Origin: Malacoraja senta
Lineage: Eukaryota
Reading direction: 5' to 3'
DNA length: 64,000 bases
NCBI GenBank assembly: GCA_038087875.1
Contig: CM075989.1
Coordinates: forward strand, 18,292,001-18,356,000
Made by a program: the position numbers and the translations under genes. Below, piece after piece: positions 415 through 62,700 of the stretch (positions are counted from its first letter, which is position 1; every line of letters begins with the position of its first letter). Below the pieces are notes generated by a model. That model saw nothing but the letters and a program-made list of their open reading frames with translations. It searched no databases and was not told the origin of the DNA.

Positions 415-600
415 CTTCCTCAGATGTGGGGCCCCATCACTTATGTCCCATCCCCAACATTCTTTTCCAGCGTTCTCCTCCCTACTCCATTAGTCTGAAG
501 AACGTTCCTCACCCGAAGCGTCGTCTGTCCATTCCCTCCACAGACGCTGCCTGACCGGCCGGGTTCCTCCTCCAGGGCTTTGTGTTTTGCTCAAGATCCC

Positions 601-1429
601 TGTGTAAATCGCTCGTTCTAAGCTTCCCCATAGTCTAGTTTCAGTCAAAAACCACTGAATCAAGCACTTGATCAACTAATCTTTATTTAAAAAAAGCACA
701 ATTACAGTTCCCACCACTGTACCTAACCACCGCGGGTTCGATCCTCGTATCTGCCTGTTCAAGCCCTCTAGGCCTCGCTCAAACAGACTCTCCAGAAGTT
801 CACCCAGTCCCAAGCGCTCTCCCAGAAGATCGACGCAGGACCTCGTGGTAGCAGACTTTTATAGGTCCTGGGACCTCGAGGGGCCGAACCACATGGGGGT
901 GGTCTCTTTACAATCCAATTACAGATATCGATTAACCCCATACATAACAGACATTTTCCTAACCCAATAATACAGCAGCTAATACATTGTATTCAAGCAG
1001 GGCTTCTCAAGGAAGCCAACTTAGCAACATTTACCCTGATCTGCAAGAAACCCAGACACGGCTCAATACCTCATCCAGTCAACTCGTCAAAGTAGAACTC
1101 GGCAAAATTATTTACAATTATTTACAAGGTGTGTGTCTGGTTTGCAGTCATACAATCCATTCTATGCATTTTGCACCTAATTGACAGGGTCTGCAGATGT
1201 TCTCATTCTTTTCCTGCAGGTTATATCTAGGCTCTAGACAAACTGGCACCACTCCGCAGCTTGTCTCATTTCTGCAGAGAGCAATTTCCAAATTGACCAA
1301 ATCTCCCAGCAGCCCTGAAGTTTTTACCCCTTTTTAAAGTCCTAACCTGTCCAATTTGGCCAGGATTAACACCTGCACCTGCAGCCCCTGGTGTCACCAT
1401 TATGAGTTTGCGCCACAACCTCTATCACA
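601..1429 (-). mobile_element. Probable solo LTR (ERV/LTR-retrotransposon type)
   Basis: About 830 bp bounded by TGT...ACA. On the minus strand TATAAAA (857-863) is followed about 170 nt later by AATAAA (682-687), giving a U3-R-U5 layout. It abruptly truncates a Penelope-derived repeat at about 600. No clean TSD was found. Confidence 0.55.
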
Positions 1430-1573
1430 GATAACTTTGTCACTGTTGTTCGCAAACCTGGCATTAGCAGTCATTTCCTGTGATCTGTTGGAATGAACTC
1501 TCCTTCCAAACAGATGGCAGAGACTGGGCTGTGCCAACAAGCGGCTGGCAGAGACGTGACTGGTTCATAGCCG

Positions 1574-1592
1574 GGCCACCAGATGGAGGTGC
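1574..1592 (+). promoter_or_regulatory. Candidate CTCF-binding motif
   Basis: GGCCACCAGATGGAGGTGC resembles the CTCF core CCASYAGRKGGCR and lies in non-repeat sequence. Motif match only. Confidence 0.3.
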
Positions 1593-1844
1593 CACCTTGG
1601 CAGACAGCTGGCAAGCACAATATGGGCGAGGGCCGGATCCTTCCTCACCATCAAACAAATGTTATTTGGGTAATTGGTTTACGGTGAGTCGGTTTATGCT
1701 CTAGCATAGTCTAATTGTACCTCTAGTGATGCAGAAGGAGGCCATTTGACCCATTCGGCTCATGCCAGCTCCCAGAGAAACAATCCCATTCATCCCATTC
1801 CCCCCTCTTCTTATTTCCCTGCAACGCTGCAACTTATTTTCAAG

Positions 1845-3917: not shown

Positions 3918-4177
<260 letters not shown>

Positions 4178-4607
4178 CTGTACCTGTGCCTCGGTACACG
4201 TGCCAATAAACTGAACTACACTAAAGTAATACATTACACAATAGAAAACAGCGACTTCATGCACAGACTGGTGAGATGTGAAGCCAAAAACCTCAGGAAC
4301 AGTAACTAGTGCTGAGGTTTGAAAGGAAGGAGAGAGCTGGTCAGTTGCTGAATGAAATACAGACTGAGACCAGCTGTATAGAATTGACTGTTTCTGCACA
4401 CCAAACCTAGTTTCCATTTCTGTGATGAGTTACTACTGTAACTAAATTTTAAAAATCCAATCTCCATTTTCTTTTAGAAAGGTTGAGATTTTGTTATGAC
4501 TTGTCCATTATTCTCTTTTAAATCCGCTTTTTTAACCATAAGAATACTTCTTGCTTCTTGCGGAGGTTTTAATTTCTCTTGCTCCCGATTGTTGTTTTCA
4601 CCCTCGG

Positions 4608-6394: not shown

Positions 6395-6645
6395 CTCCTC
6401 CCCACCAGCTTCTCGTTTCACCCAACAAATAGCTAACAATAGCCAGTTTCCTTTATCATCGTTACTTTTTTGCACATCTTTCATTCGCTGTTCTTTATCT
6501 CTCTACATCGTCGTCTATATCTCTCGTTTCCCTTTCCCCTAACCAGTCTGAAGAAGGGTCTCGAACCGAAACGTCACCCATTCCTTCTCTCCAGAGATGC
6601 TGCCTGTCCCGCTGAGTTACTCCAGCTTTTTGCATCCATCTTCGG
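6395..6645 (+). mobile_element. Penelope-derived terminal (pLTR-like) fragment with hammerhead motif at 6548-6575
   Basis: Pyrimidine-rich 3'UTR, then CTGAAGA-A-GGGTCTCGAACC-GAAACGTC, then the family tail gatgctgcctgtcccgctgagttactccagc. Confidence 0.75.
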
Positions 6646-7218: not shown

Positions 7219-7270
7219 TTAGATGTGTTAATATTCTAACTTCCACAGACTTTCATCTTGAGGTTAACCA

Positions 7271-14460: not shown

Positions 14461-14751
14461 AGCAATACCGGGTCTGAAGAAGGGTCTCGACCCGAAACGT
14501 CACCCATTCCTTCTCTCCAGAGATGCTGCCTGTCCCGCTGAGTTGCTCCAGCATTTTGCGTCTGCCTTCGATTTAAACCAGCATCAACAGTTCTTTCCTA
14601 CACACTAAGTAATACCGAGTTTGAAGAAGGGTCTCGACCCAAAACATCACCTATTCCTTTTCTTCAGAGATGCTGCCTGACCCGCTGAGTTACTCCAGCT
14701 TTTTGTGTCTATCTTCGGTTTAAACCAGCATCTGCAGTTCCTTCCTACACA
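14461..14751 (+). mobile_element. Head-to-tail dimer (147-bp period) of the Penelope-derived hammerhead element
   Basis: Two units each start aataccg.gt(c/t)tgaagaagggtctcgaccc and end ttcctacaca. The second core is mutated. Confidence 0.8.
14470..14505 (+). ncRNA. Minimal type-I hammerhead ribozyme motif (Penelope-type)
   Basis: GGGU-CUGAAGA-A-GGGUC(UC)GACCC-GAAAC-GUC-ACCC. It has the full catalytic core, a 5-bp stem II, palindromic ACGU helix III, a GUC cleavage triplet and helix I GGGU/ACCC. Activity is untested. Confidence 0.75.
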
Positions 14752-25371: not shown

Positions 25372-25597
25372 TTTAATAAGGAACTGCGGATGCTGGAAAA
25401 TCGAAGGTAGACAAAAATGCTGGAGAAACTCAGCGGGCGAGGCAGCATCTATGGAGCGAAGGAAATAGGCAACGTTTTGGGTCGAAACCCTTCTTCAGAC
25501 TGATGTAGGGTTTCGACCCGAAACTTTGCCTATTTCCTTCGCTCCATAGATGCTGCCTCATCCGCTGAGTTTCTCCAGCATTTTTGTCTACCTTGGC
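25372..25597. mobile_element. Penelope-derived hairpin insertion (inverted pLTR pair)
   Basis: Inverted arms of about 90 bp, a hammerhead-like core on the minus strand, and TATTTTATGT duplicated on both flanks. Confidence 0.8.
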
Positions 25598-26446
25598 TAT
25601 TTTATGTACTCTGTACTTAATTTTAGCCAGTTTAATATTTCAACAGGACATCAATTTAGATATGCAATAGAGAAATTAATTCAAACTTCATTATGAACGA
25701 CCCTGTGTTAATGGGCTTTCAGCAGTTGACGTTGTGATTTTATGAACATCTTGTCAGTCTTAAACAGCACAGTTTGGTGGGCTAGTTCAATGATGATGAT
25801 GATATCTCTCCCCCGAGACCCCCTGTAGACAACTTACCTGAAACGGAAATGCAGGGGTATTATCCTAACTACATCTGAAATTGGATTAAAAAAATTGAGA
25901 AGGGGAATTCAATATTTTCTTTTGCTAAACGCAAGCTGAGCCACAGCAAGCAGCGCAGCGTGCCGGAGAGATAAAAGTCGTCCGCATCACAACACAGTTG
26001 GACGCTGCTTTGCGAATGCAATTTGCCAGGTGTCAAGCTTCCACCTTCAGCTGGCTGTTGAGAGAGGAGGCACTGCGTGTTACTCTCCTCCCCGCCAGCA
26101 CGGGGGGATTGGCAGGTTAGCAAGGCCTGCAGCAGTGAGATGTTGAAGCTGCAGAGCCGGTCGCCAGCCTGTTCCTTGGCCAGAGAACGTTACGAGGTCA
26201 GGTGGGCCACTAAGAGCAAGAATCGACATCCTTGACTGTAAGGATTGTTATATATAATGTGTAAGAAGGAACTGCAGATGCTGGTTCAAACCGAAGATAG
26301 ACACAAAAAGCTGGAGTAACTCAGCGGAGTAGACAAAGTGTTTAAGAAGGAACTGCAGATGCTGGAAAATCGAAGGTAGACACCCTGGAGAAGTGCTGGA
26401 GAAACTCAGCGGGTGCAGCAGCATCTATGGAGCGAAGGAAATAGGC

Positions 26447-26474
26447 AACGTTTCGGGCCGAAACCCTTCTTCAG
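26447..26474 (-). ncRNA. Minimal hammerhead ribozyme motif (UUCG-capped stem II variant)
   Basis: CUGAAGA-A-GGGU(UUCG)GCCC-GAAAC-GUU on the same strand as, and downstream of, the GIY-YIG ORF end. Confidence 0.7.
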
Positions 26475-26569
26475 ACTGATGTAGGGGGGGGCGGGGAGAA
26501 GAAAGGAGAAAGGAAGAGGAGGAGCCCGAGGGCTGAGGGAGAGCTGAGAAGGGGAGGAGACAGCAAGGG

Positions 26570-26644
26570 CTACTGGAAATTGGAGAAGTCAATGTTTATG
26601 CCGCTAGGGTGCAGACTGCCCAAGCGGAATATGAGGTGCTGCTC
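26570..26644 (-). pseudogene. C-terminal fragment of a Penelope-type GIY-YIG endonuclease
   Basis: The E..LI..L..L.P.G.N motif is the conserved end of the GIY-YIG domain in Penelope/Neptune-type ORFs. Confidence 0.85.
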
Positions 26645-27008
26645 CCATTCCTTCTCTCCAGAGATGCTGCCTGTCCCGCTGAGTTACTCCAGCGCTTTGT
26701 GTCTATCAAGGATTGTAATATAGTTGTTTCATTTTCAATATATTGATATTTAAGAATATTTGTTTTACTTTGAGCTGTGCCGGTGGGTATTGTTTTGGAT
26801 TGTACTTATTATTCTTGTAACTAATTAATTAAAATTATTTTTGGTTACAAAAAGGGCAAGAATCTGGGCAGCAGATGTCCTGGTTGGGTTGCTCCTGGGC
26901 CTGCCAGGCTGACCAGCCGCGAGTCACGGCACCAGGCGGAAGAGGGCTCTGCCCGAGCCGGCTGCCTGCCCCTTTTCCGGGGTTACTTCCACAACCAGGT
27001 GGTTTTCC

Positions 27009-27090
27009 GTCTGAGGAAGGGTCTCGACCCGAAACGTCACCAATTCCTTCTCTTGAGTCTGAGGAAGGGTCGCGACCCGAAACATCTCCA
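27009..27090 (+). ncRNA. Tandem pair of hammerhead motifs, 48-bp period
   Basis: CTGAGGA-A-GGGTCTCGACCC-GAAACGTC (27011-27038) and CTGAGGA-A-GGGTCGCGACCC-GAAACATC (27059-27086). Confidence 0.65.
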
Positions 27091-27675
27091 ATTGCTTCTC
27101 TCCATAGATGCTGCCTCACCCGCTGAGTTACTCTGGCATTTTGTGTCTACTTAGCCTACAAACCTGTATGTTTTTTGAATGGAGGGAGGAAACAAGAGGA
27201 CCCGGAGAAAACCCACGCAGGTCACGGGGAGAACGTACAAACTACGTGCAGGCAACACCCGTAGTCAGGATCGAACCCAGGTCTCTGGTGCTGTAAGGCT
27301 GCAACTATATCCCTGCGCCACCTTGCGGCCGTTCTGCAGTCCCTTCCTACACCAGTTTATGTACTCCTGTTTCAAACATCCATCTGGGGCCCTGGTTTAC
27401 CAAACAACTTTGCTTTCTTTTTCAACAGAGGTCTGTGGCATTGCCAAAATGGCCTTTGTTGGTTGCGTTACACATTTCACCAGTTTTAATTGCTGAAAGC
27501 CCTGCTGAGAATAACAACCTTTTCACTGTGTCGAGAGATATCCTCCATTACATGGATAGATCACCTCAGCACAGACCCACGTGTGGGAGCGCAAAGTTCC
27601 AACAGTGAGAAGTCACACAGATGGTGCTGGGTAAATGGACCGAGCTGCCAGAGGAGGTCGTTGAGGCAGGTACAC

Positions 27676-30246: not shown

Positions 30247-33200
30247 TGCGGAGTTATGGGAGCCAAACATTTTGATGGTTAAAAATACCAGCAAATGAAT
30301 TTATTACGAAAGTCCAGAGCTGGAATGCAATGTGGTTTGAGCAACACAATTAACTGAGAGAGTGAAATGCACAAATGTATCTGGTGCCAGCAGGAAGAGG
30401 ATTCACTCAACTAATATTGTCATGCATTTGTTGATAAAGCAAAGGAAAAGGGCAAAGATGAACAACAGAAATCACCAGAAACACAATGGAAAACAGAAAG
30501 CAATAAGCAGCACTAATCAGTGGCATTTTTGTAGACAAAACGGCATTAGTACAAGCTAGATTTATCAACAATATTTATCCCAACCATATACCGCTCTCTT
30601 TTGTTTTGATTTCGTGACCAATCAATTTCTAATTTACTAAACTAATAAAATTGGAGAGCATCGAAATTAAAATCTAAAAAATGTAAAATTCTAGATTTTA
30701 ATTTGGAGGCTAGTTTTGTCTATTAGGAAAGAGGCTGATTTCTTCTGTCTGGCAATCTATTCTTAACATAAATTATCAATGCAATATTAATATAGAAATT
30801 AACTTCAATGATAAATCATCAGTATTGTGCAGCATTGACATCGACCCTGGCTCCCTTGTCGACCCCGTGATGTTGTGATGATGATGGTAGCATGCCAGAG
30901 AAACGGCACTAGTAACCCGTTTTGCAGAGTTTTTACAAGCCAACTCGGGAGTGGCACTGGCTGGAGTCTGGGAACAGGCCCCCGGTGGGAAAAAGGATCG
31001 CAGACACAATCCATCTGCCACCCTCAATGTGAAGTCAAATCCATCCGTGCCTGTGTGCCAGTCTCTCACAGTGGGAGATGCCAGGGGGGAGGTGGGCACG
31101 GTGACAACATCTTCGCACTCCGCACCGGCTACAAGAAAAGGTGCCGGGGCTTGTTTGACTGGCACCAGCTCCAGAGTTGCCCAAAGTGCCACAAAGACAG
31201 CAGAAGCATTTGTCCCACAGAAACGCAGGGAGTGAAAAAAACCAAAAAAAACGCCGCCTGTCAAAACATTGATCCCACGAGCAACAACGTGCTGCGGGAA
31301 CTCAGCGGTTCAGCCGGCAGCTGCAGAGGGAGTGGACAGGCGGTGTTTCGGGTTTGGAACCTTTTACAGACCAACAGGAGTGGGGTTGGGAGGGGGGGAG
31401 GGGGGGAGGGGGGGAGGGGAAGCTGGAATAAACAGGTGAGAGCGGGGCAAGTGATAGGTGGGTAGACAATAAATCTATAAGATCTTGTATGTGCCAGGGA
31501 GGTTGTGGCATTTAACTGATTAATGTTGGTTTCCAGAGGTGTGTGCTGAGGACAAATTTGCTGCCCTTTCTATGCCATCGGGTTGTACAGCAAGGAAACA
31601 GGCCCTTCGGCCCATCTTGTCCATGCAAACCAAGTTGGCATACTGAGCCAGTCACATTTCCTGCCTTTGGCCCATAGCCCTCTAAACCCTTCCGGTTAAT
31701 ACATCTCCGCACTGGGAGAGGTTGGAGAACCCGAGTTTTCCCCGGGTGCTCCGGGCTCCTCCCACACTCCAAAGAGGTACAGGTTTATAGGATAATTAGT
31801 TATAAATTGTCCTTAGTGTGCAGGATAGTCCTAATGCACGGGGAGATCGCTGGTCGGCGCGGACTCGGTGGGCCGAAGGGCTTGTTTCCATGCTGTATCT
31901 CAAAACTAAACTAAAAACATAATTTTAGGAAGGAACTGCAGATGCTGGTTTACACTGACGATAGACACTAAATGCTGGAGTAACAGGCAGCGTCTCTGGA
32001 GAGAAGGAATGGGTGACGTTTTGGGTTAAGACCCTTCTACAAAATCAGTACCCTGTTCCTACTTTCTCTCCATATCCCTTGATTCCTTGAAATCTTGAAG
32101 ATCCCCTCTCAATGAATATAAGCCCAGCCGATCCATTCTTTCATCGTATGTCAGTCTCGCCATCCTGGGAATTAACCTGCTGAACCTATGCTACACTCCC
32201 TCAATAGCAAACATCTTTTGAATGCTTTTATCACATCTGCCTCAACTACTTTCTCTGGCAGCTCATTCCATTGGCCCAACACCCTCTGTGTGGAACAGTT
32301 GCGGCTCTGGTTTAAATATTCTCCCTCTCATCTGTGCATGTTCAGTCTCCCTGCTCATGGCAGTGACTACTGTGATCGAGGAAATGAAAGTATCATCACA
32401 CGAATCTTTGAGGTCATTGAATAGGGAGTGATTAAGCAGGCTACAGCTCTAATCTCAAATTCAGAAGAATGAGAGATCTCATTGTCACATAAAATTCTCA
32501 AGGGGTTGATAGGGTCGTTGCAAGCAAGATATCTCCCAATTTGTTTTTTCTCTATGTCAGTGAATCATCAGAATTCTCTTTCTTGGAGAATTGTAAAAGG
32601 CCATCAAAGATGTACAGGTTTGTAATTGGCTTCGGTAAAGATTGTATATTGTCCCTAGTGTGTAGGATAGTGTTAGCGTGCGGGTCGATCGCTGGTCGAA
32701 GTGGGCTTGGTGTGCCAAAGGGCCTGTTTCCGCGCTGTATCTCTACACTAAACTAAATGGGACTAGCCCAGTATGCCGACTTAGTCGGCATGGACAAGAG
32801 GGGCCGAAGGGTCTGTTTCTTTGCTGCACACCTCCATGTTATCTGTCAGCCCATTCCTTCTCTCCAGAGATGCTGCCAGTCCTGCTGAGTTACTCCAGCG
32901 TTTTGTGTCTATCTTCGATTTAAACCAGCATCTGCAGTTCCTTCCTACACACATATCTAAGCCCTGGTTGGTTTATGGACTTTAGCTGGGATTGTTGACG
33001 TCGAACAGCATTATAAATGCCTTTCAAAACTGACACATCGTGCAAGCTGGAATCTGGCTCAAAGCACCCACTGTTTCCCTGTGGACCGGGTGAGTGGCAG
33101 GTGGTCCAGGGTGGCACTTGGTTTCTACAGCATGGCATGAAGGGCATTTTAATTAGGTTATCTGCCAACCACTGAAGAGCAGGCAGCAGGTGTGGAAACT

Positions 33201-34128: not shown

Positions 34129-34688
34129 GTGTCCCGACCTGAAACGTCATCCATCCATGTTCTCCAGAGAGGTACTACCTGACCCGTTGAGTTACTCCAG
34201 AAATGTGTCTTTTTTTAAACCAAAAAGAGAAAGTCTTACAAGTTTAAAGTAAAGCTATCCTTCAACCTGTTGCTTGTTCTGCATTAGAAAATCTACCTGT
34301 TGAGTCAAGGTTTTACTGTTGATGTTTCAACGGCAGTAACAGTTATAGAAAATGCTTCCACTTGTTGATTGTTGGGCAATGCATCTTATACAAAACCACA
34401 GAATAACTCAAGACCAGAGGGTACTGAGGCAAGGCATCACTGAAGAAGGGTCTCGACCCAAAACGTCACCCGTTCCTTCTCTCCAGAGATGCTGCCTGTC
34501 CCGCTGAGTTACTCCAACTTTTTGTGTCTATCTTCGGTTTAAACCAACATCTGCATTTCCTTCCTACACATCACTGGGTTCAAGTTGTTAGTTAATCTTC
34601 ATGGCCCATTTATCTAACTAGATGATAGACACAAAATGCTGGAGTAACTCAGCGGGGCAGGTAGCATCTCTGGAGAGAAGGAATGGGT

Positions 34689-34716
34689 GACGTTTCGGGT
34701 CGAGACCCTTCTTCAG
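34689..34716 (-). ncRNA. Minimal hammerhead ribozyme motif
   Basis: The reverse complement reads CUGAAGA-A-GGGUCUCGACCC-GAAAC-GUC, an intact core. Confidence 0.7.
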
Positions 34717-35943
34717 ACTGATGAAGTTGTGTCTCTCTTCAGTGTAAACTAGCATCTGCAGTTTCAACCTACTAACTAACTAGACGTACGGGCTTCTAAC
34801 ACGGCATGAATCAACACTCCAGCTATTTGTGCCTATCTTCGGTTTAAGCCAGCATCTGCAGTTCCTTCCTACACCCACTGTCTATTTGTTTAACCTGTGA
34901 GATTGTGGACTGAGATTTAAAAAAATAGGAACAGCAGCATTGGACAGTACATTAAAAAGTGTGATCAATAGTAAAGATAGAAATAGTTAAGACGATTTAA
35001 AATTTAATGTGTTAAAAATAATTAGATTTTCTCAAAACGATTCAGCAATTGAAGGATTTTATCCACTTTCTTGGTTGGAGAGGTTAGAGACAATTCCCAC
35101 ATTGATAAAAGGATGCTGGCACTCTTAATGGCCAGACTTAACTTTCAGTGGCTAGTTTAATGGGCAAATCCAATGAAAATAACGAGAAGGCTAAGGGTCA
35201 GATACCAGTAATGAGAAGCAAATGATGGAGAGATCTAAATCAACAGCAAGTTCTGGAGATTCATAACTCAAAGCATTGCTTAATGCTCTGAATCTGTTGG
35301 CCGATTTGCACATTAGTAACCAAATTCCAGCCCATTATATTCTTTTGGTCGCCCATGGCTTACATTATTCGAACATTATGAAACCAAAGTTTAGTTTAGT
35401 TTAGAGATACAGAGTGGAAACAGGCCTTTCGGTCCACTGGGCCCATGCTGACCAGCAATCCCCATACACTAACACTATCCTGTACACTCCAGGGACAATT
35501 TACAATTTTACCAAGCCAATTAACCTGCAAACCTGTACGTCTTTGGAGTGCGAGATCAAACCGGAGCACCTAAAGCCCATGCAGGTCACGGGGAGAACGT
35601 ACAAGCTTTGTATAGACAGCACCCGTAGTCAGGATCGAACCCGGGTCTCTGGCGTGGTAAGGCAGTAACACGGTGCCACCCATGGTGCCCTGGTAAATTG
35701 GTGAAGTGGGTAGAAAGGAACTGCAGATGCTGTTTTACTTCGGAGTCACGTGAGTGACTACGTGAAGAAGCCCGTCAGTGCGCCTGCGCGTCATTACGTC
35801 AGACGCCTTGACGCAAACGGACGTGAGGAGCAGTGCTCCTCGAGTGGTTTGTAGTTTTTCAACTACAAGGTAAGTAAAAACTTTTTTACAGGTTTTCCAG
35901 GTCCGTTTACTGTGGGTCTATGGCGATTTTTTTCACAGACGCC

Positions 35944-37100: not shown

Positions 37101-37169
37101 TCAGGGTACTGAAATGACTCAAGAGGTAGGTGGACCTGGTTCTCATGGGAACATACTAACTGGATTAAG

Positions 37170-38620: not shown

Positions 38621-38632
38621 AATAAAGAATGG

Positions 38633-39013: not shown

Positions 39014-39028
39014 TTTGCAGGTTTTAAG

Positions 39029-42151: not shown

Positions 42152-43492
42152 AAAGTTATGGAATAAAATTTACGCCTTCCATGAATGTGAAAAAAGTAAA
42201 TAAACTTAAGGATGCAAAGTGTCCTTCAAGACACAAAGTGCTGGAGTACTCAGCATCTCTGGAGAACATGGATAGGTTACGTTTTGGGTCTATACCCTTC
42301 CTCTGGTCCAAAGGCCCTTTAATTGGACGTGGCTGTGGCTCCTGCACCTATTGTCTATTGGCTGGTTTGGCCAGGAGAGGCGTGGACCTTGAAGGGGATG
42401 TGTCATCACAGATCTAAAGGCGGAAACAATGTAAGGCAATGTGAACCAGGGCATTGGTGGGGAGTTTAAACAAGTCGACTGAAGGATCAAGCCCCATCAG
42501 GGTCGATGATATTTAGCTTTTCAATTCTACGAACATATTGTTATTGTGATATATTAATGCTGGTTCAAAGATATTCCTGTACAGGATGGATTCCCAAGTT
42601 TTTTTGTAATAATCTCCAATTTATTGAAATATGTAAATTAAGTGAATATACCTTTTGTTAGAAGTTTAAATTATTGAAGCTGAAGACTTTTCCTTCATAA
42701 ATTCCAATTACTCATAAATTTCACTTATTTGGATAACTTCTTTGACTGTCTAGAAGAATTCTTCATGCTCTGGTGATGGCACAGATAACATATGTCAACC
42801 TCGGGGAAACCACTGCGTTCTGTTTAGTGATATAATTAACAGATGCCTGTTACAGCAGACTTATTTCGCTGTTAACATTGCCACTAATAAGAGGGAATGC
42901 CCCTGCATCGTTAATAATGCTACCACTGAGCATCCTGAAATCTCTTGCTCTAACCTGTCTTCATCGACGGGACGGCAGTGGAGAGAGTCGACAGCTTCAA
43001 GTTCCTGGGCGCACACATCTCAGAAAATCTGTCCTGGCCCCAGCGCATTGATCGCAAACAAAGAAAGCTCATCAACACTTCAACTTCCTTCCGAGATTGA
43101 TGGGATTTTGTATGCTGGCGAATTTGTTATCGAACTTCCACAAGTGAACGGTAGGGAGTGTACTGACTGGTCTGTTAAGCTGCACTAAGTAAGAACTTCA
43201 TTGTTCCATTGTTGATACCTATCACAACTAAACAGTTGACTTTCGAATTTGAACTCCAACGGGAAAGAACAAAAATCAGTTATACAAGGGGGGCGTTAAA
43301 CAATATTTCAAGTTGAACCTGTCATTGAAAGTTATGGAATAAAATTTACGCCTTCCATTCATGTGAAAAAAGTAAATAAACTTAAGGAGGCAAAGTGTCC
43401 TTCAAGACACAAAGTGCTGGAGTACTCAGCGGGAGAGGCAGCATCTCTGGAGAACTTGGATAGGTTACGTTTTGGGTCGAGACCCTTCCTCT
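42152..43492 (+). repeat. Local direct duplication of about 150-165 bp (42152-42303 and 43328-43492)
   Basis: The shared unique flank aagttatggaataaaatttacgccttcc...gtccttcaagacac is joined to the same Penelope-derived fragment in both copies. Confidence 0.88.
42950..43172 (+). mobile_element. Rex1/Babar LINE internal fragment
   Basis: Encodes IDGTAVERVDSFKFLGAHISENLSW, the end of the RT domain of Rex1-type LINEs. Confidence 0.8.
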
Positions 43493-45464
43493 GTCCTCAA
43501 AAGAAGTCTTACGTTTGTACCCCTCCACCCCCACATCAGTGAGTTCTGGGTTTGCCAAGATGTAGAGCTCTTCTGTCATCTCTGCCTCTGGTACTTTTTC
43601 TATGGAGAGGAGCCTACCATGTTCTCCAGAGATGCTGCCTGACCTGCTGAGTTACTCCAGCACTTTGTGTCCTTTCGTGTATTAACCAGCATCTGCAGTT
43701 CCATGTGTGATCAATATGGCGATCCAATGTGATATCCTTTTTTACAAAATCATGTTGCCTTTCCTTCAATTGTGGGTGGCAGAGTGGTGCAGCGGTAGGG
43801 CTGCTGCCTCACAGCGCCAGATATCCAGGTTTGATCAATTGCACAATCTCCCTGCGACCATGTGGGTTTCCTCCGGGTGCACTGGTTTCCTCCCACATCC
43901 CAAAAGCAAGTGGATCCGGAGCAGGGTTCTGACCTGAAACGTCATTTTGTGTCTGGTGTAAACCAGCATCTGCAGTTCCTTCTTACACGTTTCTTCTGTA
44001 CACTCTGGGTGGGTCGATTGTAATCATAAATAGTCTTTCCGCTGACTGGTTATCATGCAACAAAAGCTTTTCACTATACCTCGGTCCACAGGACAACAAA
44101 CTAAACTAAACTAATGAATGTTGACACAAAACAAGCCACCAATAAAGATTTATTTGGATCAGATGATGAATCAGATCAGTGAAGGAGGATGGGGGCTGGG
44201 GAAGCAGCGAAGTTCAGAAGAGGTTCTACAGAAGGGTCTCGACCCAAATCGTCACCTATTCCTTCTCTCCAGAGATGCTGCCTGACCCCCTGAGTTACTC
44301 CAGCATTGTGTGTCACGGTGTACAGATACAGGATAAAGGAAATCATATTCAGTGTAAGGTAAAGTGCCATTAAAGATAGTCCGAGGGTCTCCAATGAGGT
44401 AGATAGTAGCTCAGGACTGCCCTCCAGTTGTCGGTTGGATGGCCTGATAACAGTTGGGAAGAAATTGTCTCCGAGTCTGGAAAATCTGGTAAAGTACCTT
44501 TTGATCAATTACTACATGGATACAGATAGATATTCTTTTGACCTGTTAACTCTTACTCATTGTTTTAAGTATCCTACTGACTGCATATTTCCAGTATTTC
44601 TCCTCCCCACCTTGCATAGGCCAGCAGAACATTTCACTTTTCACAAATCACGGGATAATCTGCAGACTTTGAAACTTTGCTTTTAAACAACTTCAGAGTG
44701 TATTTCTGCAGACTGTTGCAAATCGAGCATTAAATATTGCGACCACCTCTGTGCTCATCTTTCCAAGCAGAACTACCATTAATAATCAATATACTTGTTT
44801 TATTATTCAGCTACTTGAATGGTCAATTGACAGAAAACTCCTTAACGCACAACTATGGGCGGCACGGTGGCGTAGTGCTACTTCCTTACAGCGCCCGAGA
44901 CACTGATCCCGACTACGGGCGCTGTCTGTACGGAGTCTGTACGTTCTCCCCGCGACCTGCGTGGGTTTTCTCCGGCATCTTCGGTTTCCTCCCACACTCC
45001 AAAGACGTCCAGGCTTGTAGGTTAATTGGCTCGGTATGCATGTAAAATTGTCCTGAGGATGTGTTGGATAGTGTTAATGTGCGGGGACCGTTGGTTGGCG
45101 CGGCTTGGTGGGCCGAAGGGCCTGTTTCCACGCTGTATCTCTAAACTAAACTAAAAAACTAAAACAACAACTCTCCCTTAACACTTCTATCCAAATTCCT
45201 TCCAAAAGAGGAGGCATTAGTATTCCGCATGTATCATCAGCAGTTGAATTTATTATGCTTGACCCACTTTCCCCATGCCCGGGACTGCTGGCAACTATTG
45301 CAGTTTATTTTAATGCCTATTTTAAAACAGAGACAACTAAATTTTCGGCAACATCTTTTTGGCATTTTCTTTCATGTTGGGGCTGAGGTCCAAATCTCTG
45401 AGGCCAACTCTGCACTCAGTGACAACTACATGAACTTCCTTCTGAATCCCAGAGACGGTGTTAA

Positions 45465-45709: not shown

Positions 45710-46139
45710 TTACTGATCCCAGATAGACACAAAAAGCTGGAGTAACTCAGCGGGACAGGCAGCATCTCTGGAGAGAAGGATGGGTGACATTTTGGGTCGA
45801 GACCCTTCTTCAGATTGCTACTGATCCTCTTGATCCGTAGATCGACAGTCAATATTCATTTTCCATGATGTTAACACAATCTAATTTGCAGCGAAGCACT
45901 CCGCACTTTGTAAAGTTCACGGGCAAGAAGGTGCCAATGTCACGGGATGGTTAACCTAATGAGGTGCACTATCGGTGGGGGAGCTGAGAGATATTTACAC
46001 ACAATTCAATGATTCAATACTTTATTGTCACTTGTACCCAGGTACAGTGGAATTCTTTGTGTTTTGCATACAATGCACAAAGTTCCCAAAATAGTCGCCA
46101 CGTGTCTGGCGCCGACAGTGTTACAAAAATAATCATTAG

Positions 46140-49923: not shown

Positions 49924-50462
49924 TCATGGTAATTGGTCAGGTCGGGGGGGAGTCCCCTCGTCACGTGTACCATGTAATCCCGTGCTACCTGCTCCATGGT
50001 CGGATAGTCGGCGACCAAATTGTCTCCCCCACCTGGTTTTAAAGAAGGAACTGCAGATGCTGGAAAATCGAAGGTACACAAAAATGCTGGAGAAACTCAG
50101 CGGGTGCAGCAGCATCTATGGAGCGAAGGAAATAGGTAACGTTTCGGGCCGAAACCCTTCTTCAGACCCTTCTTCCCAGGGTCTGAAGAAGGGTTTCGGC
50201 CCGAAACGTTACCTATTTCCTTCGCTCCATAGATGCTGCTGCACCCGCTGAGTTTCTCCAGCATTTTTGTGTACCATCCCCCACCTGGTTTGCCAGGTGA
50301 GGAGGGGGCTGTGGACCCCCAGCAGGACCAAAAACAAGACCTGCCAAAGGGCAGATGAGCTCCTAGCGAGCCAATGGCCATCCACACACCAGTAGAAGTT
50401 GCGATCACTGTCGTACACGGCATTGTAAGGCACCGTGCCCGTTGATGTTTTCAATGATGATG

Positions 50463-50494
<32 letters not shown>

Positions 50495-53537: not shown

Positions 53538-56500
53538 ATGGATGTCTCAATTGTCACATCTTTAACAGGTATCCATGTACATCAGGTACCATGTTAATAG
53601 CTGTGTAGATGAAGGGTTTCTTCCTCCTTCAACCACGGATGATCGTAGCGTCCTGGCCTCACTATCTCAACGTTTAAGAAACGTTTGGACAGGTACATGG
53701 ATTAGAGGGATATGAGCCAAGAGCAGTCAGGTGGGACTAGTTTCGATGGGCATGTTGGTCGGTGTGGGCAAGTTGGGCCGAAGGACTTGTTTCCATGCAG
53801 CACGACTCCATCACCTGCGATTTCACCAGTTACCTCAGCAGAAGTGGGCCCAAATTCTGGACTCTCTGATCCCAGTAGCTGCTCACCAGTTATCTTTTAT
53901 GCCATCTTAGGAATGTTAACATTGAGAATTTGCCACCATCTTAAAGTTGCACTTCACATTACACCCTTTATTTTTAAAAAAAGGGCTCGGACACACAAAA
54001 TAATTCTCAACCACAATTCAGTTCTGCTGTTTCTACTGACCAAGCATTGAAACTTGAAGAAAAATGCCTATTCCAATACGAATACCGTGTAACTACAACC
54101 AATAGATTTGAAGCCAGAAAATGGATTAACTGCAGTGCAATTTCTTTTCCTAAAAATCTATATTTTCAACAAAATCAAGGCTTGTCTGAAAACATGCCAC
54201 TTAATTCTGCGTTAATATAACAAACATGGAATACAAAGAGGCTAGCCTAGCGGTAGAGCTGCTGCCTTCCAGCACCAGAGACCTGGGTTCGATCCTGACT
54301 ACGGGTGCTGTCTGTGCAGAGTTTTACGTTCTCCCGGTGACCTGCCTGGGTTTTCGCCAAGATTTTCGGTTTCCTCCCACACACCAAAGACTTACAGGTT
54401 TAGAAACATAGAAAATATGTGCAGGAGTAGGCCATTCGGCCCTTCTAGGTAGCACCACCATACAATATGATCATGGCTCATCATCCATTATCAGTACCCC
54501 GTTCCTGCTTTTTCCCATATCCCTTGATTCCGTTAGCCCCAAGAGCTAAATCTAACTAGGTTTGTAGGTTAATTAGCTTGGTATATATGTATCGCTAGTT
54601 GGCGTGGACTCGGTGGGCCGAAGGGCCTGTTTCCACGATGTATCTCAAAACTAAACTATTCCAGCCAAACTATTGGAATTGCTCAATCTGTGGGAAAGTG
54701 AAAGCAACAACAGTTTATCCAGAGCTTTGCTGATTTCTTGACCTTACTTAAACTTGCCTCCCTCCAGACTGCTGATGCAGCAAGATGGAGAGATGTTGTC
54801 CAACACTCACCAGCCACAAATTGATTTGTATGCTATCATGCAGATCTCTTGTAGCTTCCTATACTACAAATCTCTCGGACATGTTGCACGGTCATCAGTT
54901 ATTTGTCACTCGTGATACAGATGCTACTGTTTCCACAACTGGGAAATACTGATCTTCCAAATGTAATAAGATTATCGCTGACTAAAAGCCGACGACCCTG
55001 ATCTCATTTACCCAGAGCAGAGTTTCACAACACTGCACAGTGTCTGTATATAGAAACCCCATCTGTCTGACTCTGGGCTGAGGCAATCAATGCTCCAAAC
55101 ACAGCAGAAAGGGTTAGACACAAAATGCTGGAGTAACTCAGCGGGACAGGCAGCATCTCTGGACAGAAGGACTGGGTAACGTTTCGGGTCGAGATGTCAC
55201 CCATTCCTTCTATTCAGAGATGCTACCTGTCCCGTTGAGTTACTCCAGCATTTTGCATCTATCTTTGGTGTAAACCAGCATCTGCAGTTCCTTCCTGCTT
55301 ACAAAGGGATAGATGGCTCACAAAGATAACAAAGAATATGTCTTCCTCTATCATGATTTATCGTGAAAAACATCTAGTTATTGCACAACATACATTTCCA
55401 AATAGTCCCATTTTCACTGACTGATTTTTCACTTGAATGCAAATTTTGAAAAGAGGAATAGTTTGAAAATTAAAATAGGGTCGTAAGAGTCATACAGCAC
55501 AGATACACATCCGTTGGCCCAACTTGTCCACGCTGAACGAGATGCCCCATCAATGCTAGTCCCATTTGCCTACGTTTGGCTCATATCCATTTAAACATTC
55601 CCTACCCATGTACCTGTCCAAATATATTTTAAATGTTGGTATTGTACCTCCTTTAGTTCCATATAACCACCACCACCCTCTGTGTGACAACATTGCTCCA
55701 AGGTTCCTATTAAATCTTTCCTCTCTCACCTTGAATCTCTGTGGTCTGGTCAAGATTGTCATAAGTAGAGACATCGGAACAATCAGTTCCCTCCTCTCTA
55801 CTTTCAGTCTGAAGAAGGGTCGTGACCTGAAACGTCATCCATCCTTTTTCTACATTGATGCTGCCCGGCCCGCTGAGTTACCCCGGCATTTTGTGTATGT
55901 GCCAGCATCTGCAGTTCCTACACATCTACACATTGGATTCTTGGGTCACGGTTCATAAGTTCATAAGCGATAGGAGCAGAATTAGGCCATTAGCCCCATC
56001 AAGTCTACTCCGCTATTCAATCCTGGCTGATCTATCTCTCCCTCTTAACCCCATTCTTCCTGCCCCCTCCCCATAACCCCTAACACCCATTCTAATCAAG
56101 AATCTATCTATTTCTGCTTTAAAAATATCCATTGATTTGTCTGCCACAACGTTCTGTGGCAATGAATTGGTTGTTGAGATAACTTACAATAAAATTGTGT
56201 AAACGTCTCCATTTATCATCTCAAAGGCTTTTGTTGCTTTTGGCTGAAAACAAGTGGGAAGAGTTGGGAGTTTGCACAGTGTTACCGCAAATAATGTTGA
56301 GCACATCTTGAAACAAGATTTGCTAATATTCAGCTCGTCTGTGTTATTTTAAATATTTTATGTACAGTTGACCCAGTGACCTACTGATCTGCATTACAAA
56401 AGATGGAGCAAAGAAATGATTCTTACCTTAAGTTGGTGCTCACTGCTGGTACTTTACAATATACAGAATCTTTGAGGGAAGGAACTAACCCAAAATGAGC

Positions 56501-57557: not shown

Positions 57558-57682
57558 AACAATGGAGCAGCAGAGCATGCATGGCCAGATGTTGGATAAT
57601 GCTGACCTCAGCACAGGGAGTCTCTGGAGCCAGACTCAATACTCCTGGTCTGGGATAGAGAAAGGTCCAATCCCTAACTAGT

Positions 57683-57710
57683 CTGAAGAAAGGTCTCGAC
57701 CTGAAACGTC
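57683..57710 (+). ncRNA. Minimal hammerhead motif with compensatory stem II change
   Basis: CUGAAGA-A-AGGUC(UC)GACCU-GAAAC-GUC, in which the outer G-C pair is replaced by A-U. Confidence 0.65.
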
Positions 57711-58659
57711 ACCCATTCCTGCTCTCCAGAGACGCAGCCTGTCTCCAGCTTTCCGTGTCTGTCTAAGAGATTGCGACAATAGTTGGACGTAATTGGGGCG
57801 AGGTCTGGTGTAAAGCTTTTCACGGTACCTCGGTACACGTGACAATAAACTAAACTGAATTGAAACAGAAGTACAGTCCCTCCCACAGCTGAAGAGTTTG
57901 CAGAATATCACCGTTTATGTTTACAACTAAAATTAGCCATAGAATGGCAGCTAAGATGCTGGAGGGCTTTTGGCATCTATGGAACTTTTGCCTTCAGAAC
58001 TAACAAGGGAAGGGCGGACAGAAAGGCAAACTGATCATTATTGCTACTTAATATGTAGGCTTTTAAAAAAAAAGTAGAATGAACATGGAATACCACTGTA
58101 GAAACAAAAGATCCGCAGATGCTGGCTTACACCAAAGATAGACACAAAGTGCTGGAGTAACTCAGCGGGTCAGGCAGCATCTCTAGAGAGAAATGATGGG
58201 CGATGTTTCGGGTCGGGACCCTCCTTCAGACTGAAAGTAGGGGGTGGGTAGGTGAACAGCTGGAGGCAGAACCCCTCCCATTCTTTTTCTCCAGCACTCC
58301 AGTAACCCGCTGAGTTACTCCAGCACTTTGTGTCTGCCTATGGAATACCATTGTGTAGGTATTGTGTACCATTGTGGAGCTACAGATGCTGGTTTACACT
58401 GAAGGTGGACACAAAATGCTGGAGTAACTCTGCGGGTCAGGCAGCATCTCTGGAGAAAAGGAATAACTGACATTTCGGTTTCTTTGTTTAGAGTGAGCGA
58501 CAATTCTTTCAGTGACAGCACAGTGCGAAGAGAGGACAATACTCAGACAAGAATGTCATATATTGAAGGTTGCCAACTTGCAACTCCCGACAAATTAACT
58601 CAACATTTTCATCTACCCAATTAAAGTCTCTCTACACCAATCTTGGAAACATTCCCTTA

Positions 58660-58972
58660 AGTGATAAGAGCAGAATTAGGCCATTCGGCCCATCAAGTTT
58701 TCTCCACCATTCAATCATGTCTGATCTGTCGTTCCCCCTTAACCCCATTCTCCTGCCTTCTCCCCATAACCCCCGACACCGTACTAATCAAGAATCTATC
58801 TATCGCTGCCTTAAAAATATCCATTGACTTGACCTCCACAGCCTTCTGTGGCAATGAATCCCACAGATTCACCACAGTAAAGAAATTCCTCCTCATCTCC
58901 TTCCTAAAGGAAGATCCTTTAATTCTGAGGCTGTGTGCTCTGGTCCTAGACTCTCCCACTAGTGGAAACATC
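58660..58972 (-). mobile_element. CR1 LINE 3' fragment
   Basis: MFPLVGESRTRAHSLRIKG...NLWDSLPQKAVEVKS.DIFKA.IDRFL followed by a 3'UTR. Confidence 0.9.
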
Positions 58973-59314
58973 CGCTTTATCCAGGCTTTCCCTATTCATA
59001 TTGCCTTGAATCACCTCCTCCCCTTACCAGGCCTAAAGCTCCCCTTCAATCAGTTGGGGACGATGCCTCCAACAGTGAAGGTCTCATTCCCCGCACTTTC
59101 CCCTCACCCCCTCTGCCCTTCCAATCTTTAGACATTTTGACTTTAGACATCCAGCCCTCCAGCCCACGCTGACCAGCGATCTCCCCGTGCACGAGCACTA
59201 TCCTACACATTGGGACCAATTTACAATTTTAGCCAAGCCACTCAGCCTACAAAGCTGTGCATCTTTGGAGTGTTGGAGGAATGTGGAGCATCCGGAAACA
59301 ACTCCACACAGGTC

Positions 59315-59758
59315 CCAACGCGGGCGGCGCTGACAGACATTGCGGTGTCCTGGGGCCGCCAGTGTTGAATCTCCGCCCGGCGCGGCCTGGGGACGTCGGG
59401 AGCTGCGGACTCCGGCGGGAAGCGGCCGTTTTGGAGGTCCAAGCCGCTGAGGTTGGCCTCCAGTCCCGACGTCGGAGAGCCAACATCCCGGCGAGCGGGC
59501 CCGAGCGGCGGGCTGCCCGTAGCGGCGACTGCGGAGGGCTCCGGAGGCCCCGACCACGGGTGAACATCGAGGAAGAGACTGACTTTGGTGCCTTCCCTCA
59601 CAGTGGGAAACTTTTGATTCTGCTGGGTGGAGATGTTTTATGTTGAATTCTATCGTGTGTTATGTCCTTTATTTTTATTGTCTGGCTGTATGGTGATCAC
59701 ATTTCACTGTGCCAACTGGCACATGTGACAAATAAATATATCTTGTATCTTGTATCTT
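59315..59758 (+). mobile_element. GC-rich short retroposon with a Rex1-like 3' tail, inserted in a minus-strand HE1 SINE
   Basis: GTC is duplicated at 59312-59314 and 59759-59761. The 5' part is CpG-rich, and the 3' end reads atttcactgtgcc...cacatgtgacaaataaa plus (TATCTTG)n. Confidence 0.7.
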
Positions 59759-62700
59759 GTCACAGGGAGAAAGTACAAACTCCGTACAGACAGCGCCCAT
59801 AGCCAGGATTGAACCCGGGTCTCTGGCACTGTGAGGCAACAACTCCACCGCTGCGCCAATCCCTGACCCCAGCAAAAGACTCAATAGTAGCCCCTCCCAA
59901 GCGTTTGGGTCACCCCTATCTGTCTCATTTTCAGCTCAGCACCGACCCTTCCTGCAGTCTGCAGTATTTCACCGAGTATTTCACACCGTGTTCAGCATTT
60001 TAAGAATGATTTTTAATTGGGAATAATGGACTCATATTCAGATTGGAGACATGATCACACATGGCAACCATTCCCATGACATTCAGTGCACTAATTCAGT
60101 CTGACTGACCCGAGGTGTCACCATTTGTATAATTTGATACAGTACAGGCTGGAAATTACTGCATTATCTGTGTAAAATGCATAATGTCTTTGTGTGACAT
60201 TCCTCTGCTATTTTAACAGAGGCAGAAATCCATTTAAAACAAATGGGTCAGAGCCTCCATTAATCTGATGGACAAAGGAATGTAATTTAGAAGTGTTATG
60301 CATTCATCGGTCAGTGGCACACCAAGCATCTCCACCTCACACATTCATTAACAAGAAACAATGCATAAAGACACGGTGAATCGTATTGCCTGAGATTAGA
60401 CAACCAGGCACATTGACATGACCTCCTTCATCTTTCCACAAATTCATTTTTCCACTCCTCCTTTCCACAAGTTAATCTTTCTTCAAAGAAATTTGGTTGG
60501 CATGGGCAAGGTGGACTGTAGGGCCTGTTTCCATGTAACAAAATGGAAACGCAGATGCTGATTTCTGCCGAGTTATAGGCCCAAAATGCTGGAGTAGCTC
60601 AGCGGATCAGGCAGCATCTCTGGAGAATATGCATAGGTGACGTTTTGAGTCGGCTGTCCAACCACCTCCTATTGGAAACACCCCCCCTCGCCTGTATCCA
60701 CCTATCACTCACCAGGCTTCGCCCTGCCCCTCCACTCTGCCAGCTTTCTTTCTCCCCCACCACAATCAGTCTGAAGTTGGGTCCCGACCCGAAGCGTCAT
60801 CTACGCATGTTCTCCAGAGATGATCATAAGATCATAATACACAGGAACAGAATTAGACTATTCGGCCCACCAAGTCTGCTCCGCCATTTGATCACGGCTG
60901 ATCTATTTTTCCATCTCAATCCCATTCTCCTGTCTTCTCCCCGTAACCTTTGACGCCCTTAATAATCCAGAAACTATCAATCTCCTCTTTAATAAACACC
61001 CAATGACTTGGCTCTCATAGCTGTATGTGGCAATCAATTCCACAGATTCACCATTCTTTGGCTAAAGAAATTCTTCCTCATCTCCGTTCTATGCTGCCTG
61101 ATCTGCTGAGTTACTCCAGTGTCTCTCTCTTACTAAACTGGATTCTGAGGGGGGGGGGTTGCTGGGGAGCCTGAGGCGATCACTTGCACCAATTGTAGCA
61201 TTTCTCCCACTGCAGCTACCTTGGTTAAATCTGAGCAGGCTGCTTACAGACCCAGGTCTGTTGCTGCTTCGTCTACCATTTTACACACACACACCCACTC
61301 AGCTGCTATTGTTGGGATGAATAAATCTTTTTTGACGTTCAGGATTTAAAAAAAGTATCCATATTTTCCAATACATTGGCACATATAGTGGACTACAATA
61401 GCATGTGGACACAAGGAACTGCAGGTACTGGAGTCTTGAGGAAAACACAAAGTGCTGGAGGAACTCAATGGGTCAGGCAGCAGCCATGGAGGGAGTGAAC
61501 CTACAACATTTCAGGTCAGGACCCTTCTTCAGAGAATTACTTCTTCATTGCTGACAGAAAAAATCCAAGCCCTTTGATTTCAACATCCACGGCATTTTCC
61601 TTAACATTGTCCTTTGTTCTTCTGGTGCGGAGTGTAAATATGTTCCTCTATTACTGATTCACCAGCAGGAATAGCCATTTCCCTTACATATTATTGATCA
61701 TTAAGAGTAATGAACACTTAAATATGCTCCGAATTTAAATTGGGAAGAAATGTTCGCTCTCTGCCGACTCTGCACAAATTCACTCAAACTGCACGGTGTT
61801 CCATTATCATTGCAAATTAATGAAAGTCCATCTGTTAGAAATTGCCTCCATTTCCTACTGCTGAGATCTGATAACAAAATTGAGCAGCTCGGTGACTGTG
61901 CACTGTCGGGGAGAGGCCCAGTGATTAAAATGGATTTCATGAGGTTGAGCCAACAAGACTTAGATCTGTCAATAGACACAACAAGCTGGAGTAACTCGGC
62001 GGGACAGGCAGCATCTCTGGAGAGAAGGAATGGGTGACGTTTCGGGTCGAGACTGAAGAAGGGTCTCCTCCCACACCTGACTCAACTACCTCTTCTGTCC
62101 CGCTGAGTTACTCCAGCGTTTTGTGTCTCTCTATGTTTCAAGATGTTTGTGAACCGATATCATCCAGTACAGACTATGGAAGCCTTTTACCTAAATAACC
62201 ATCGCCATTTTCACATATGAGCATCCGGCAGAGTAGTGAACCTCCTTCAGACTAGTGAACAGCACTCATTAATGTTGACTAAAAGTGTTGCACCTCTCGA
62301 CCCGTGTTGCCATGGTATCACACGTTCAATTTACTCTGAAATTGCTCCCACTTCCATTCAGTACGGAGTTGGATGATTTACCAATTTAGAAAACTGTCCT
62401 TTCCTCTGAGGAAGAGAGGTTAGTCCAAGGCTGGAGGAGCTCAGCTGCAAGAATGCCTGATGAAAGGACACAGTGCATGGTTCAGCCTCAATACCAAAAG
62501 TCACCCCTTCCTTCTCTCCAGAGATGCTGCCTGTCCCGCTGAGTTACTCCAGCATGTTGTGTCTATCTTCAGTTTAAATCAGCATCTACACTTTCTTCCT
62601 ACACATAATGTGTTGTTATTGGACTGTTTTGAACTGGAACTATGGGCCAACAGCACAGGAAAGTTGACAACCAGCAATAAATCATCAACCAGGAACTATT

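Follow-up and report, generated by a model that had tools for sequence, protein, structure and literature searches.

The window analysed here is a stretch of 64,000 nucleotides of Malacoraja senta DNA (64 kb), crowded with copies of a short repeat that carries a hammerhead ribozyme motif. This locus raises two questions: where do the short copies come from, and does the ribozyme cut its RNA in living cells? Positions in the repeat are numbered with C3 of the core as +1, which places the predicted cut between +28 and +29.

All nine cores that the initial annotation had listed as intact or near-intact were found at their coordinates and on their strands. All nine kept the catalytic-core bases and a GTC or GTT triplet, and in each of them A9 is followed by an unpaired A and the C15.2-G16.2 palindrome is present. 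Helix II had 4 of 4 pairs in eight cores and 3 of 4 in core 6548, while helix I had only two contiguous pairs in six; four pairs were present in cores 14474, 50165 and 50183, with bases that come from the flank or from a duplication. The peptide strings 'LKKGLDPKRH' and 'GDVSGRDPSSD' are, by direct reading, the two strands of the hammerhead motif. The estimate of about ten further decayed copies was too low, since the profile search gave 59 copies in the window (33 on the + strand and 26 on the - strand; reversed-sequence control 0). The features are as follows.

489..62570, both strands: whole population, 59 matches by profile search
6545..6643, + strand: copy with core 6548, cut predicted after 6575, helix II with 3 of 4 pairs
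14472..14731, + strand: two head-to-tail copies, intact core 14474, cut predicted after 14501
25390..25594: head-to-head inverted pair joined at the ribozyme 5' edge, a typical PLE inverted structure
26338..26476, - strand: core 26474 (cut predicted after 26447), remainder of the pLTR and a tail of ~37 nt
26477..26569, - strand: pyrimidine-rich 3' UTR whose final CAG borders the ribozyme motif
26644-26570, - strand: last 24 codons and stop of a PLE ORF (GIY-YIG C-terminus), tblastn E 4e-6
26644..26709, + strand: inverted older-lineage piece at the 5' end of the 26.4-26.6 kb insertion, starting at about +30
27009..27151, + strand: intact core 27011 in a partial copy, fused to another copy that begins at AGT
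32849..32931, + strand: copy apparently starting at +29; ambiguous, maybe a longer copy with a small insertion
34622..34722, - strand: copy with intact core 34716, cut predicted after 34689
45720..45817, - strand: solo copy with decayed core, 9-bp target-site duplication abutting the ribozyme 5' edge
50057..50277: inverted young-lineage pair with intact cores 50165 (-) and 50183 (+), cuts predicted after 50138 and 50210, respectively
55804..55898, + strand: copy with core 55809, G10.1-U11.1 variant, cut predicted after 55836
57680..57765, + strand: copy with core 57683, A10.1-U11.1 variant, cut predicted after 57710

The second copy of the pair at 14472..14731 is decayed and begins at AGT, and a pyrimidine-rich 3' UTR of an older lineage lies upstream of the copy at 6545..6643. 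The junction within 27009..27151 is of the template-jump type.

The repeat corresponds to the pLTR, the end with the hammerhead motif, of Neptune-like Penelope retrotransposons. The GIY-YIG C-terminus noticed near core 26474 does lie on the same strand, about 95 bases upstream of the core, and this fragment (26570..26644) has 67% identity to the full-length protein. Young full-length elements encode a 1,212-aa ORF with RT and GIY-YIG between two motif-bearing pLTRs, which upholds the proposed Penelope origin; elements with the motif in both pLTRs were present at 6 of 20 loci. The protein matched RVT_1 (E 6e-6) and GIY-YIG (E 1e-3), both below the Pfam cut-offs, and contains DKG, YIDD and GIY-YIG motifs; its atlas neighbours carry RVT_1/GIY-YIG at 0.98. 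A CX4CX2C linker at aa 1079 falls within the CX2-5CxxC pattern of Neptune, a type of linker also found in Nematis (Craig 2021). A single ORF with RT and C-terminal GIY-YIG, pLTRs, inverted 5' pieces and an optional tail of 30-40 bp are all as in EN+ PLEs. The ORF begins ~160 nt after the motif. With regard to the retained spliceosomal intron of EN+ PLEs, a splice-acceptor-like site is conserved upstream of the motif. No RNA record was listed for the repeat; contigs guessed to be RNA cover it, with ends that are not readable from them and no splice joint listed. We considered splicing as a way to complete helix I and rejected it, because the one donor-acceptor product tested had 0 genomic copies and would not lengthen the helix anyway. 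The metagenome scan confirmed no relatives.

Genome-wide, the exact core pattern occurred 66,672 times (control 0), so that the high copy number was confirmed. The repeat made up ~4% of sampled bases, and extrapolation gave ~815,000 copies, of which about 8% keep the exact core. The minimal type-I architecture with the ACGU palindrome was also confirmed, with a shorter helix I: among 146 intact cores, 100 had a helix of 2 bp and 9 one of 4 bp, which fits the 2-bp variant of D. virilis and not the 4-5 bp that define the minimal type-I hammerhead. The Rfam check that had been suggested was blank, with no hammerhead covariance model among 18 matches at E<=5. The predicted folds of four constructs did not give the catalytic fold, which lay 3 kcal/mol above the best predicted fold when it was constrained. 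In an alignment of 13 rows the helix cells were paired in 95%, with mostly one-sided changes, and covariation was no higher than in shuffles (44 of 500 as high). Solo copies decay at CpG within the core. The initial annotation expected several potential self-cleavage sites on any transcript crossing the region; this is overstated, because only ~8% of copies keep the exact core, helix I is mostly 2 bp, the core decays at CpG, the PLE hammerheads in the literature depend on dimerisation or on the protein of the element, and no host exon was recognised among 100 frames scanned.

The ends of the short copies are informative on their origin. Their 3' ends lie at +93-96 or +129-132, most of their 5' ends fall within -5..0, and they have target-site duplications. 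Among 269 core-bearing copies, 110 had unique flanks, 68 had inverted junctions directly before the core, 86 retained UTR and 5 were direct repeats. In the young lineage 27 of 63 5' ends fell within -7..+2, and of 48 young copies with unique flanks, 32 carried duplications of at least 7 bp (control 0). Most copies start at the ribozyme 5' edge, so their template was uncut RNA. Splicing of host exons to the motif was ruled out as the source of the unique flanks, because the duplications abut the start. An earlier impression that full-length copies never stop at the 5' hotspot (0 of 6) was dropped, as 11 of 50 rows do stop there.

The family had been called largely non-autonomous, which is not supported as put. 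The short copies match the pLTR letter for letter, have their own target-site duplications and have fixed start and end points, so they look like run-off by-products of the autonomous young element and not a separate family. One could instead regard them as a self-propagating SINE-like family with its own internal promoter, mobilised in trans, as ~815,000 copies with own duplications, fixed ends and an initiator-like TCAGT at the start might suggest. This is quite improbable: young solos are identical to the autonomous pLTR, longer copies linked to the ORF exist for every lineage that has its own UTR, and solos decay in the core and do not include the downstream sequence needed by the anole protein (Frangieh 2024).

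It is somewhat unlikely that the -5..0 hotspot marks, instead of a transcription start, the point where RT halts at a 3' splice site (pyrimidine tract and CAG) occupied by protein or where an exonuclease is stalled by the ribozyme fold. Several lineages do have unrelated pyrimidine-rich UTRs that all end in YCAGT, and the D. virilis Penelope intron ends at helix I (Cervera 2014). Nor is there a cap-G signal: a cap-derived G before AGT, hinted by small samples, was not confirmed by a larger one (3 GAGT among 46 AGT in 100 rows, by eye). Breakpoints, however, were nearly absent in -120..-8 (1 of 63) and RT jumps clustered at the 5' edge (18 of 31). Starts defined by target-site duplications retain intron-side bases, so they are not spliced products, and no ORF-less spliced copy was found. 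The excess of GGT (18 of 100) is partly self-duplication.

A minority of copies begin exactly at +29, the first base after the predicted cut. Genome-wide start counts at +27, +29 and +31 were 72, 164 and 95, a 1.7-2.4-fold excess at +29 after a normalisation that presumes random flanks, measured against these two control positions only. Samples taken without selection show no more than a bump at +29: 2 of 63 young-lineage 5' ends fell in +26..+33, other samples gave 6 of 435 and 7 of 765 copies near +29 (six of these seven at +31), and 1 of 31 direct junctions was at +29. A target-site duplication abutted +29 in 2 of 11 single copies.

The arrays, which lie outside the window, give a more regular picture. 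Two of them, found independently of the cut-site search (138 bp x11 and 165 bp x4), restart at +29; the 47 loci examined contained about 16 re-entry junctions, of which these are two. The +89-to-+29 joint was present in all nine fetched loci having that junction (8 events, two lineages), and six of them are independent 61-bp head-to-tail arrays with the unit +29..+89. Every unit of these six and of the two longer arrays restarts at +29, while no direct arrays were in the +27 or +31 lists; arrays in the +29 list were collapsed by eye over the first 100 of 164 rows. The 61-, 138- and 165-bp arrays are without the ribozyme core, which sits just 5' of each unit, and a core in direct orientation was absent from all 8 visible 5' ends of the +89/+29 loci. 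The 3'-most unit of these loci often starts at +128-131, outside the repeat unit. Repeated insertion into the own pLTR was ruled out, because there is no upstream core and a single target-site duplication surrounds one array as a whole. Re-entry at +89 does not follow from pairing with the ACCT at +91-94, which would predict +90, a form that the search pattern excluded. The joint was listed for three of four runs (organisms D, E and G), with none listed in run X21 (40 records). Inheritance may account for the joints of other organisms, and X19 may come from the species or sample of this genome itself.

The main rival to cleavage is an RT stop at the neighbouring palindrome, which ends at +28, next to the predicted cut. 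The motif would then not cut in vivo; RT would stall at AACGTT (+23..+28) or at a bound protein and jump back once, and the arrays would grow by DNA slippage or unequal crossing-over. The palindrome duplex of about -5.5 kcal/mol, the helix I of only 2 bp, uncut RNA as the main template here and in vitro, and the anole RNA without reads ending at the cut (Frangieh 2024) all agree with such a stall. We consider it improbable, since in arrays of 8 and of 11 units all units stop at one and the same base, junctions differ by one added base inside one array (L366), and 7 of 9 loci have at least two full units where other direct junctions are almost all single. The best monomer fold also pairs +29..+32, hence an RT stop would be expected further 3'.

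If the ribozyme does cut, the arrays could still be rolling-circle copies of ligated RNA circles (61, 138 and 165 nt) or progeny of one or two master arrays. Ends with 5'-OH are RtcB substrates, retrozyme circles are documented (Cervera 2020), the 138-nt unit includes the +131 start and so fits a circle, and identical junctions at many loci suit a shared template. This origin is unlikely, as four 61-bp loci have a first pass that begins beyond the unit, at +128-131, the junction is common to both lineages, and variants at +88, at +91 and with an added A occur.

We therefore prefer cleavage followed by run-off. The short copies are likely RT run-off products, mostly of uncut RNA and in a small share of ribozyme-cut RNA, and the +29 starts and arrays are likely a fossil record of a minimal ribozyme cleaving in living cells. 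RT would start at two 3' points, as seen in vitro for the anole element, and run off RNA with its 5' end at the conserved YCAGT, where transcription probably begins. The ribozyme would remove the first ~30 nt from a few percent of the templates, either dimerised by way of the ACGU palindrome or with the protein of the element. On cut RNA the RT would run off at +29, re-engage near +89 and repeat, giving core-less 61-bp arrays; long copies would arise from tandem, circular or jumped templates. More tentatively, PLE RT may perform telomerase-style repeat addition in the germline, with the hammerhead setting the 5' boundary of the template and the 61-bp arrays as its trace. The existence of young intact elements opens this idea to direct tests.

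PLE hammerheads were already known, and the motif described here adds a member; the +29 starts and the arrays restarting at the cut are new. Craig 2021 describes hammerhead function in endonuclease-bearing PLEs as unclear, and in the single biochemical study no RNA reads lay at the cut (Frangieh 2024). If our reading is true, activity of a PLE hammerhead would for the first time have left a trace in vivo, in the form of arrays restarting at the scissile bond, and such junctions would allow ribozyme activity to be read from assemblies of any PLE-rich genome. Bounded-template re-copying by the sister group of telomerase would also bear on the origin of repeat addition.

The described PLE hammerheads have the same core, the unpaired base between 9 and 10.1, G10.1-C11.1 and the palindromic 15.2-16.2, and likewise lie in both pLTRs and mostly as single dispersed motifs. 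Helix II is 4 bp here and 7-8 bp in S. mansoni, helix I 2 bp against 4-5, and the 66,672 exact cores compare with about 4,000 in coelacanth and 9,000 in Xenopus, counted with another descriptor. Breakpoints at the cut site, seen here, are not described for those hammerheads. The D. virilis Penelope variant shares the 2-bp helix I, the 5' strand meeting a splice-acceptor-like sequence and probably an internal promoter in the pLTR (Schostak 2008, PMC2377424), but belongs to another clade and has a loop-III insertion absent here. Anolis Poseidon PAc (Frangieh 2024, PMC11167929) shares a tail delimited by two internal RT starts, the use of mainly uncut RNA as template and C-terminal GIY-YIG; the ORF start ~160 nt after the motif and the CX4CX2C linker are unlike PAc. 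PAc was shown to be cleaved in vitro with protein, but its cut site was the end of no reads; in the present genome, junctions do fall on the predicted cut.

Non-LTR retrozymes (Cervera 2020, PMC7229834; Li 2026 preprint, 10.64898/2026.07.22.740005) share PLE-pLTR-related tandem repeats. A separate 384-bp x13 array elsewhere, with a hammerhead core in every unit, fits this class. The 61-, 138- and 165-bp arrays have no core within and most repeat copies are dispersed monomers, so neither these arrays nor the window copies are the tandem units, each with a hammerhead, that define retrozymes. The proposed mechanism resembles telomerase repeat addition, in which an RT of the sister clade copies again and again as far as a fixed boundary of its template, and the 5' HDV-like ribozymes of R2, which define the 5' end of the element. 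The skate arrays differ from both in that the unit is 61 nt, is inserted at internal nicks and is a rare by-product.

All nine hammerhead cores named in the initial annotation are present in the window (C13:18292001-18356000) with a full catalytic core, and all nine keep the extra A, the ACGT palindrome and the triplet, which is GTC or GTT. Eight of them have every pair of helix II. Rfam gave no hammerhead match. The host's repeats are suggestive of a cartilaginous fish. A profile built from 86 copies detected 59 copies in the window and none in the reversed sequence. With the same profile, 419 copies were found in 999 kb sampled at round-number places on the 18 largest contigs, which extrapolates to about 815,000 genome-wide, and BLAST on 600 kb of this sample gave 281 copies (4.3% of bases). 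The exact core pattern occurs 66,672 times in the 1.94-Gb assembly (control 0). The repeat as first described is real and very high in copy number, and it adds a member to a class already known.

The repeat is the hammerhead-bearing end (pLTR) of a Penelope-like element (PLE). The copy at 26.4-26.6 kb does come after a GIY-YIG C-terminus, as had been noticed: the last 24 codons of the domain lie upstream of it, and its best genomic relatives run into GIY-YIG and RT frames. In a genome search for the RT, about 100 among the 150 matches listed have an identical score. Among 20 loci retrieved because of their long frames, six have a core both upstream and downstream of the ORF, and paired pLTRs of full-length loci are about 97-100% alike where compared. 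The ORF of one full-length element, L081, has 1,212 aa. Pfam matches of the PLE ORF are weak; its sequence motifs and its CX4CX2C linker suggest Neptune or Nematis (cf. Craig 2021). Several older lineages have unrelated pyrimidine-rich UTRs; YCAGT and the core are common to them. A 78-bp in-frame tandem repeat in the L081 ORF (aa about 270-300, locus 4226-4453) varies in copy number among full-length elements, with ORFs of 1,212 to 1,290 aa, and a good candidate splice-donor-like site overlaps the start codon (L081:3309-3317). The window also holds a broken retroelement, which we take to be DIRS-like, and a PLE remnant:

36163-39989, + strand: the broken retroelement, in which RT (Pfam RVT_1, E 9e-5) is accompanied by other frames and by part of a tyrosine recombinase (Phage_integrase, E 2e-5)
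43490-43633, + strand: remnant of the pre-RT region of a PLE (45% identity), between two repeat copies

Copy-to-copy variation sits at tolerant positions (N7, loop II, H17) and other changes are one-sided and preserve pairs, while CpGs within the core are decayed in 23-33% of copies; the motif appears to be selected in masters and decaying in solos (short dispersed copies). Covariation in the helices was no higher than in shuffles (13 rows), and none of four constructs folded in silico gave the catalytic fold. Among the 146 intact cores, helix I is 2 bp long in 100 and 3-4 bp long in 18, with fewer pairs in 28. A minimal motif is reported to be inactive as monomer with low activity as dimer (Cervera 2014), and for the anole element (Poseidon PAc of Anolis) cleavage is reported only with its own protein (Frangieh 2024, PMC11167929).

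Positions are counted from C3 of the core (+1), the T before it being 0 and the predicted cut lying between +28 and +29. Copies end 3' at +93-96 or +129-132. The 5' ends concentrate at the ribozyme edge (about -5..0, conserved YCAGT), where the 269 core-bearing copies show 110 unique flanks, 68 inverted junctions and 5 direct ones; 86 retain UTR. Before the core, T was seen by eye in 90, GT in 76, AGT in 46 and CAGT in 23 of the first 100 of 1,727 rows. Among 63 young-lineage 5' ends, 27 lie at -7..+2, one at -120..-8 and two at +26..+33. Target-site duplications (TSDs) of at least 8 bp surround 22 of the 110 unique-flank copies (about 2 expected), and among 48 young copies 32 have TSDs (control 0). 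Of 31 direct tandem junctions, 18 begin again at -5..0, and rows with a pLTR-ORF junction (n = 50) start at -8..0 in 11, further upstream in 25 and at +11..+111 in 14. From these 5'-end, TSD and junction counts at the edge we therefore conclude that most templates were uncut, likely with their 5' end at AGT.

The initiator consensus is YYANWYY, and we prefer to read the edge as a transcription initiator. A splice-site or exonuclease stop is a rival source of the same 5' ends, and a search for a cap signal before the edge found none. The edge TCAG-T-CTGA forms a palindrome with position 0 at its centre (window 26477-26480 and all cores), and many inverted junctions centre on it. A second small peak of young-lineage 5' ends lies at +11 (9/63), where GTTTCG could pair with CGAAAC as an alternative hairpin.

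The 47 junction loci, selected without regard to +29, hold about 16 re-entry junctions, and two of these are arrays that begin again at +29:

C1:27817327: 138 bp x11, unambiguous
C1:381271263: 165 bp x4, one base ambiguous

Genome-wide, starts without element sequence before them number 72 at +27, 164 at +29 and 95 at +31. Normalised for pattern and chance, the +29 excess is 2.4-fold raw. It becomes 2.1-fold when arrays are collapsed (7 arrays take up 33 of the first 100 +29 rows, which extrapolates to 118) and about 29 single-base deletions are left out of the +31 count, and the most conservative calculation gives 1.7-fold, with p 5e-6 or lower under a rough model with two control positions. 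Samples taken without selection show a small bump at +29, and its class is an estimated 2-3% of the edge class. All clear cases lie outside the window, in young lineages only.

In 9/9 loci fetched for the recurrent prefix, from both young lineages, +89 is joined to +29. The arrays have 2, at least 8, 3, 5-6 (one event, two loci), 5 and 3 units, and two of the nine loci are partial-plus-full pairs. The 3'-most unit ends at a normal RT start (at +128-131 in four loci), and no visible 5' end has a core in direct orientation. One whole array is enclosed by a 15-bp TSD, and units within one array differ by an added A. Among 11 +29 singles, a TSD abuts +29 in two and comes with a short insert in two; the others have inverted junctions (4), re-entries from +91 and the tail (2) or nothing (1). 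The control lists (+27 and +31 starts) hold no direct arrays. Four sequencing runs were matched to the pLTR, and +89 to +29 was the sole joint listed for three runs among the 12 rows listed (304 more lie beyond). These three runs are from organisms E, G and D of three studies, and the joints may be inherited copies.

At L085:7063-7096, three runs have joints that lead from +27/+28 back to -5..-3. These could be a trace of the 5' cleavage fragment, though only as a hint, since neighbouring junction ends spread over +28..+59. A retrozyme-like tandem array (384 bp x13; G000:C1:28902275-28907178, L306-L318) derives from the young lineage and has an intact core in every unit. Arrays with units of 254, 275, 299 and 219 bp were seen as well, and the 165-bp array (L321) sits within a relative of the broken RT/recombinase element at 36163-39989.

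Building on the observed sequence, elements, end distributions and junctions, we propose that transcription would start at the edge, that the motif would cleave in vivo and that RT would re-engage repeatedly near +89 rather than +90. Long copies, we likewise propose, would come from tandem, circular or jumped templates. Internal RT starts and protein-assisted cleavage are reported in Frangieh 2024 (PMC11167929). Mainly non-subscription literature (main texts) yielded no account of PLE copies or arrays that begin at the hammerhead cut, and none on hammerheads of Neptune elements in sharks; the novelty of cut-site starts may be affected by Fig. S2 in Frangieh 2024 and by the Cervera 2014 alignments. 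The Li 2026 preprint (10.64898/2026.07.22.740005) covers one chondrichthyan genome. The junction evidence makes the repeat a variant worth testing. The two 3' end points here match the pair of internal sites where RT starts on the anole element (Frangieh 2024), and the D. virilis Penelope hammerhead is reported to have a 2-bp helix I (Cervera 2014), as in 100/146 intact cores here.
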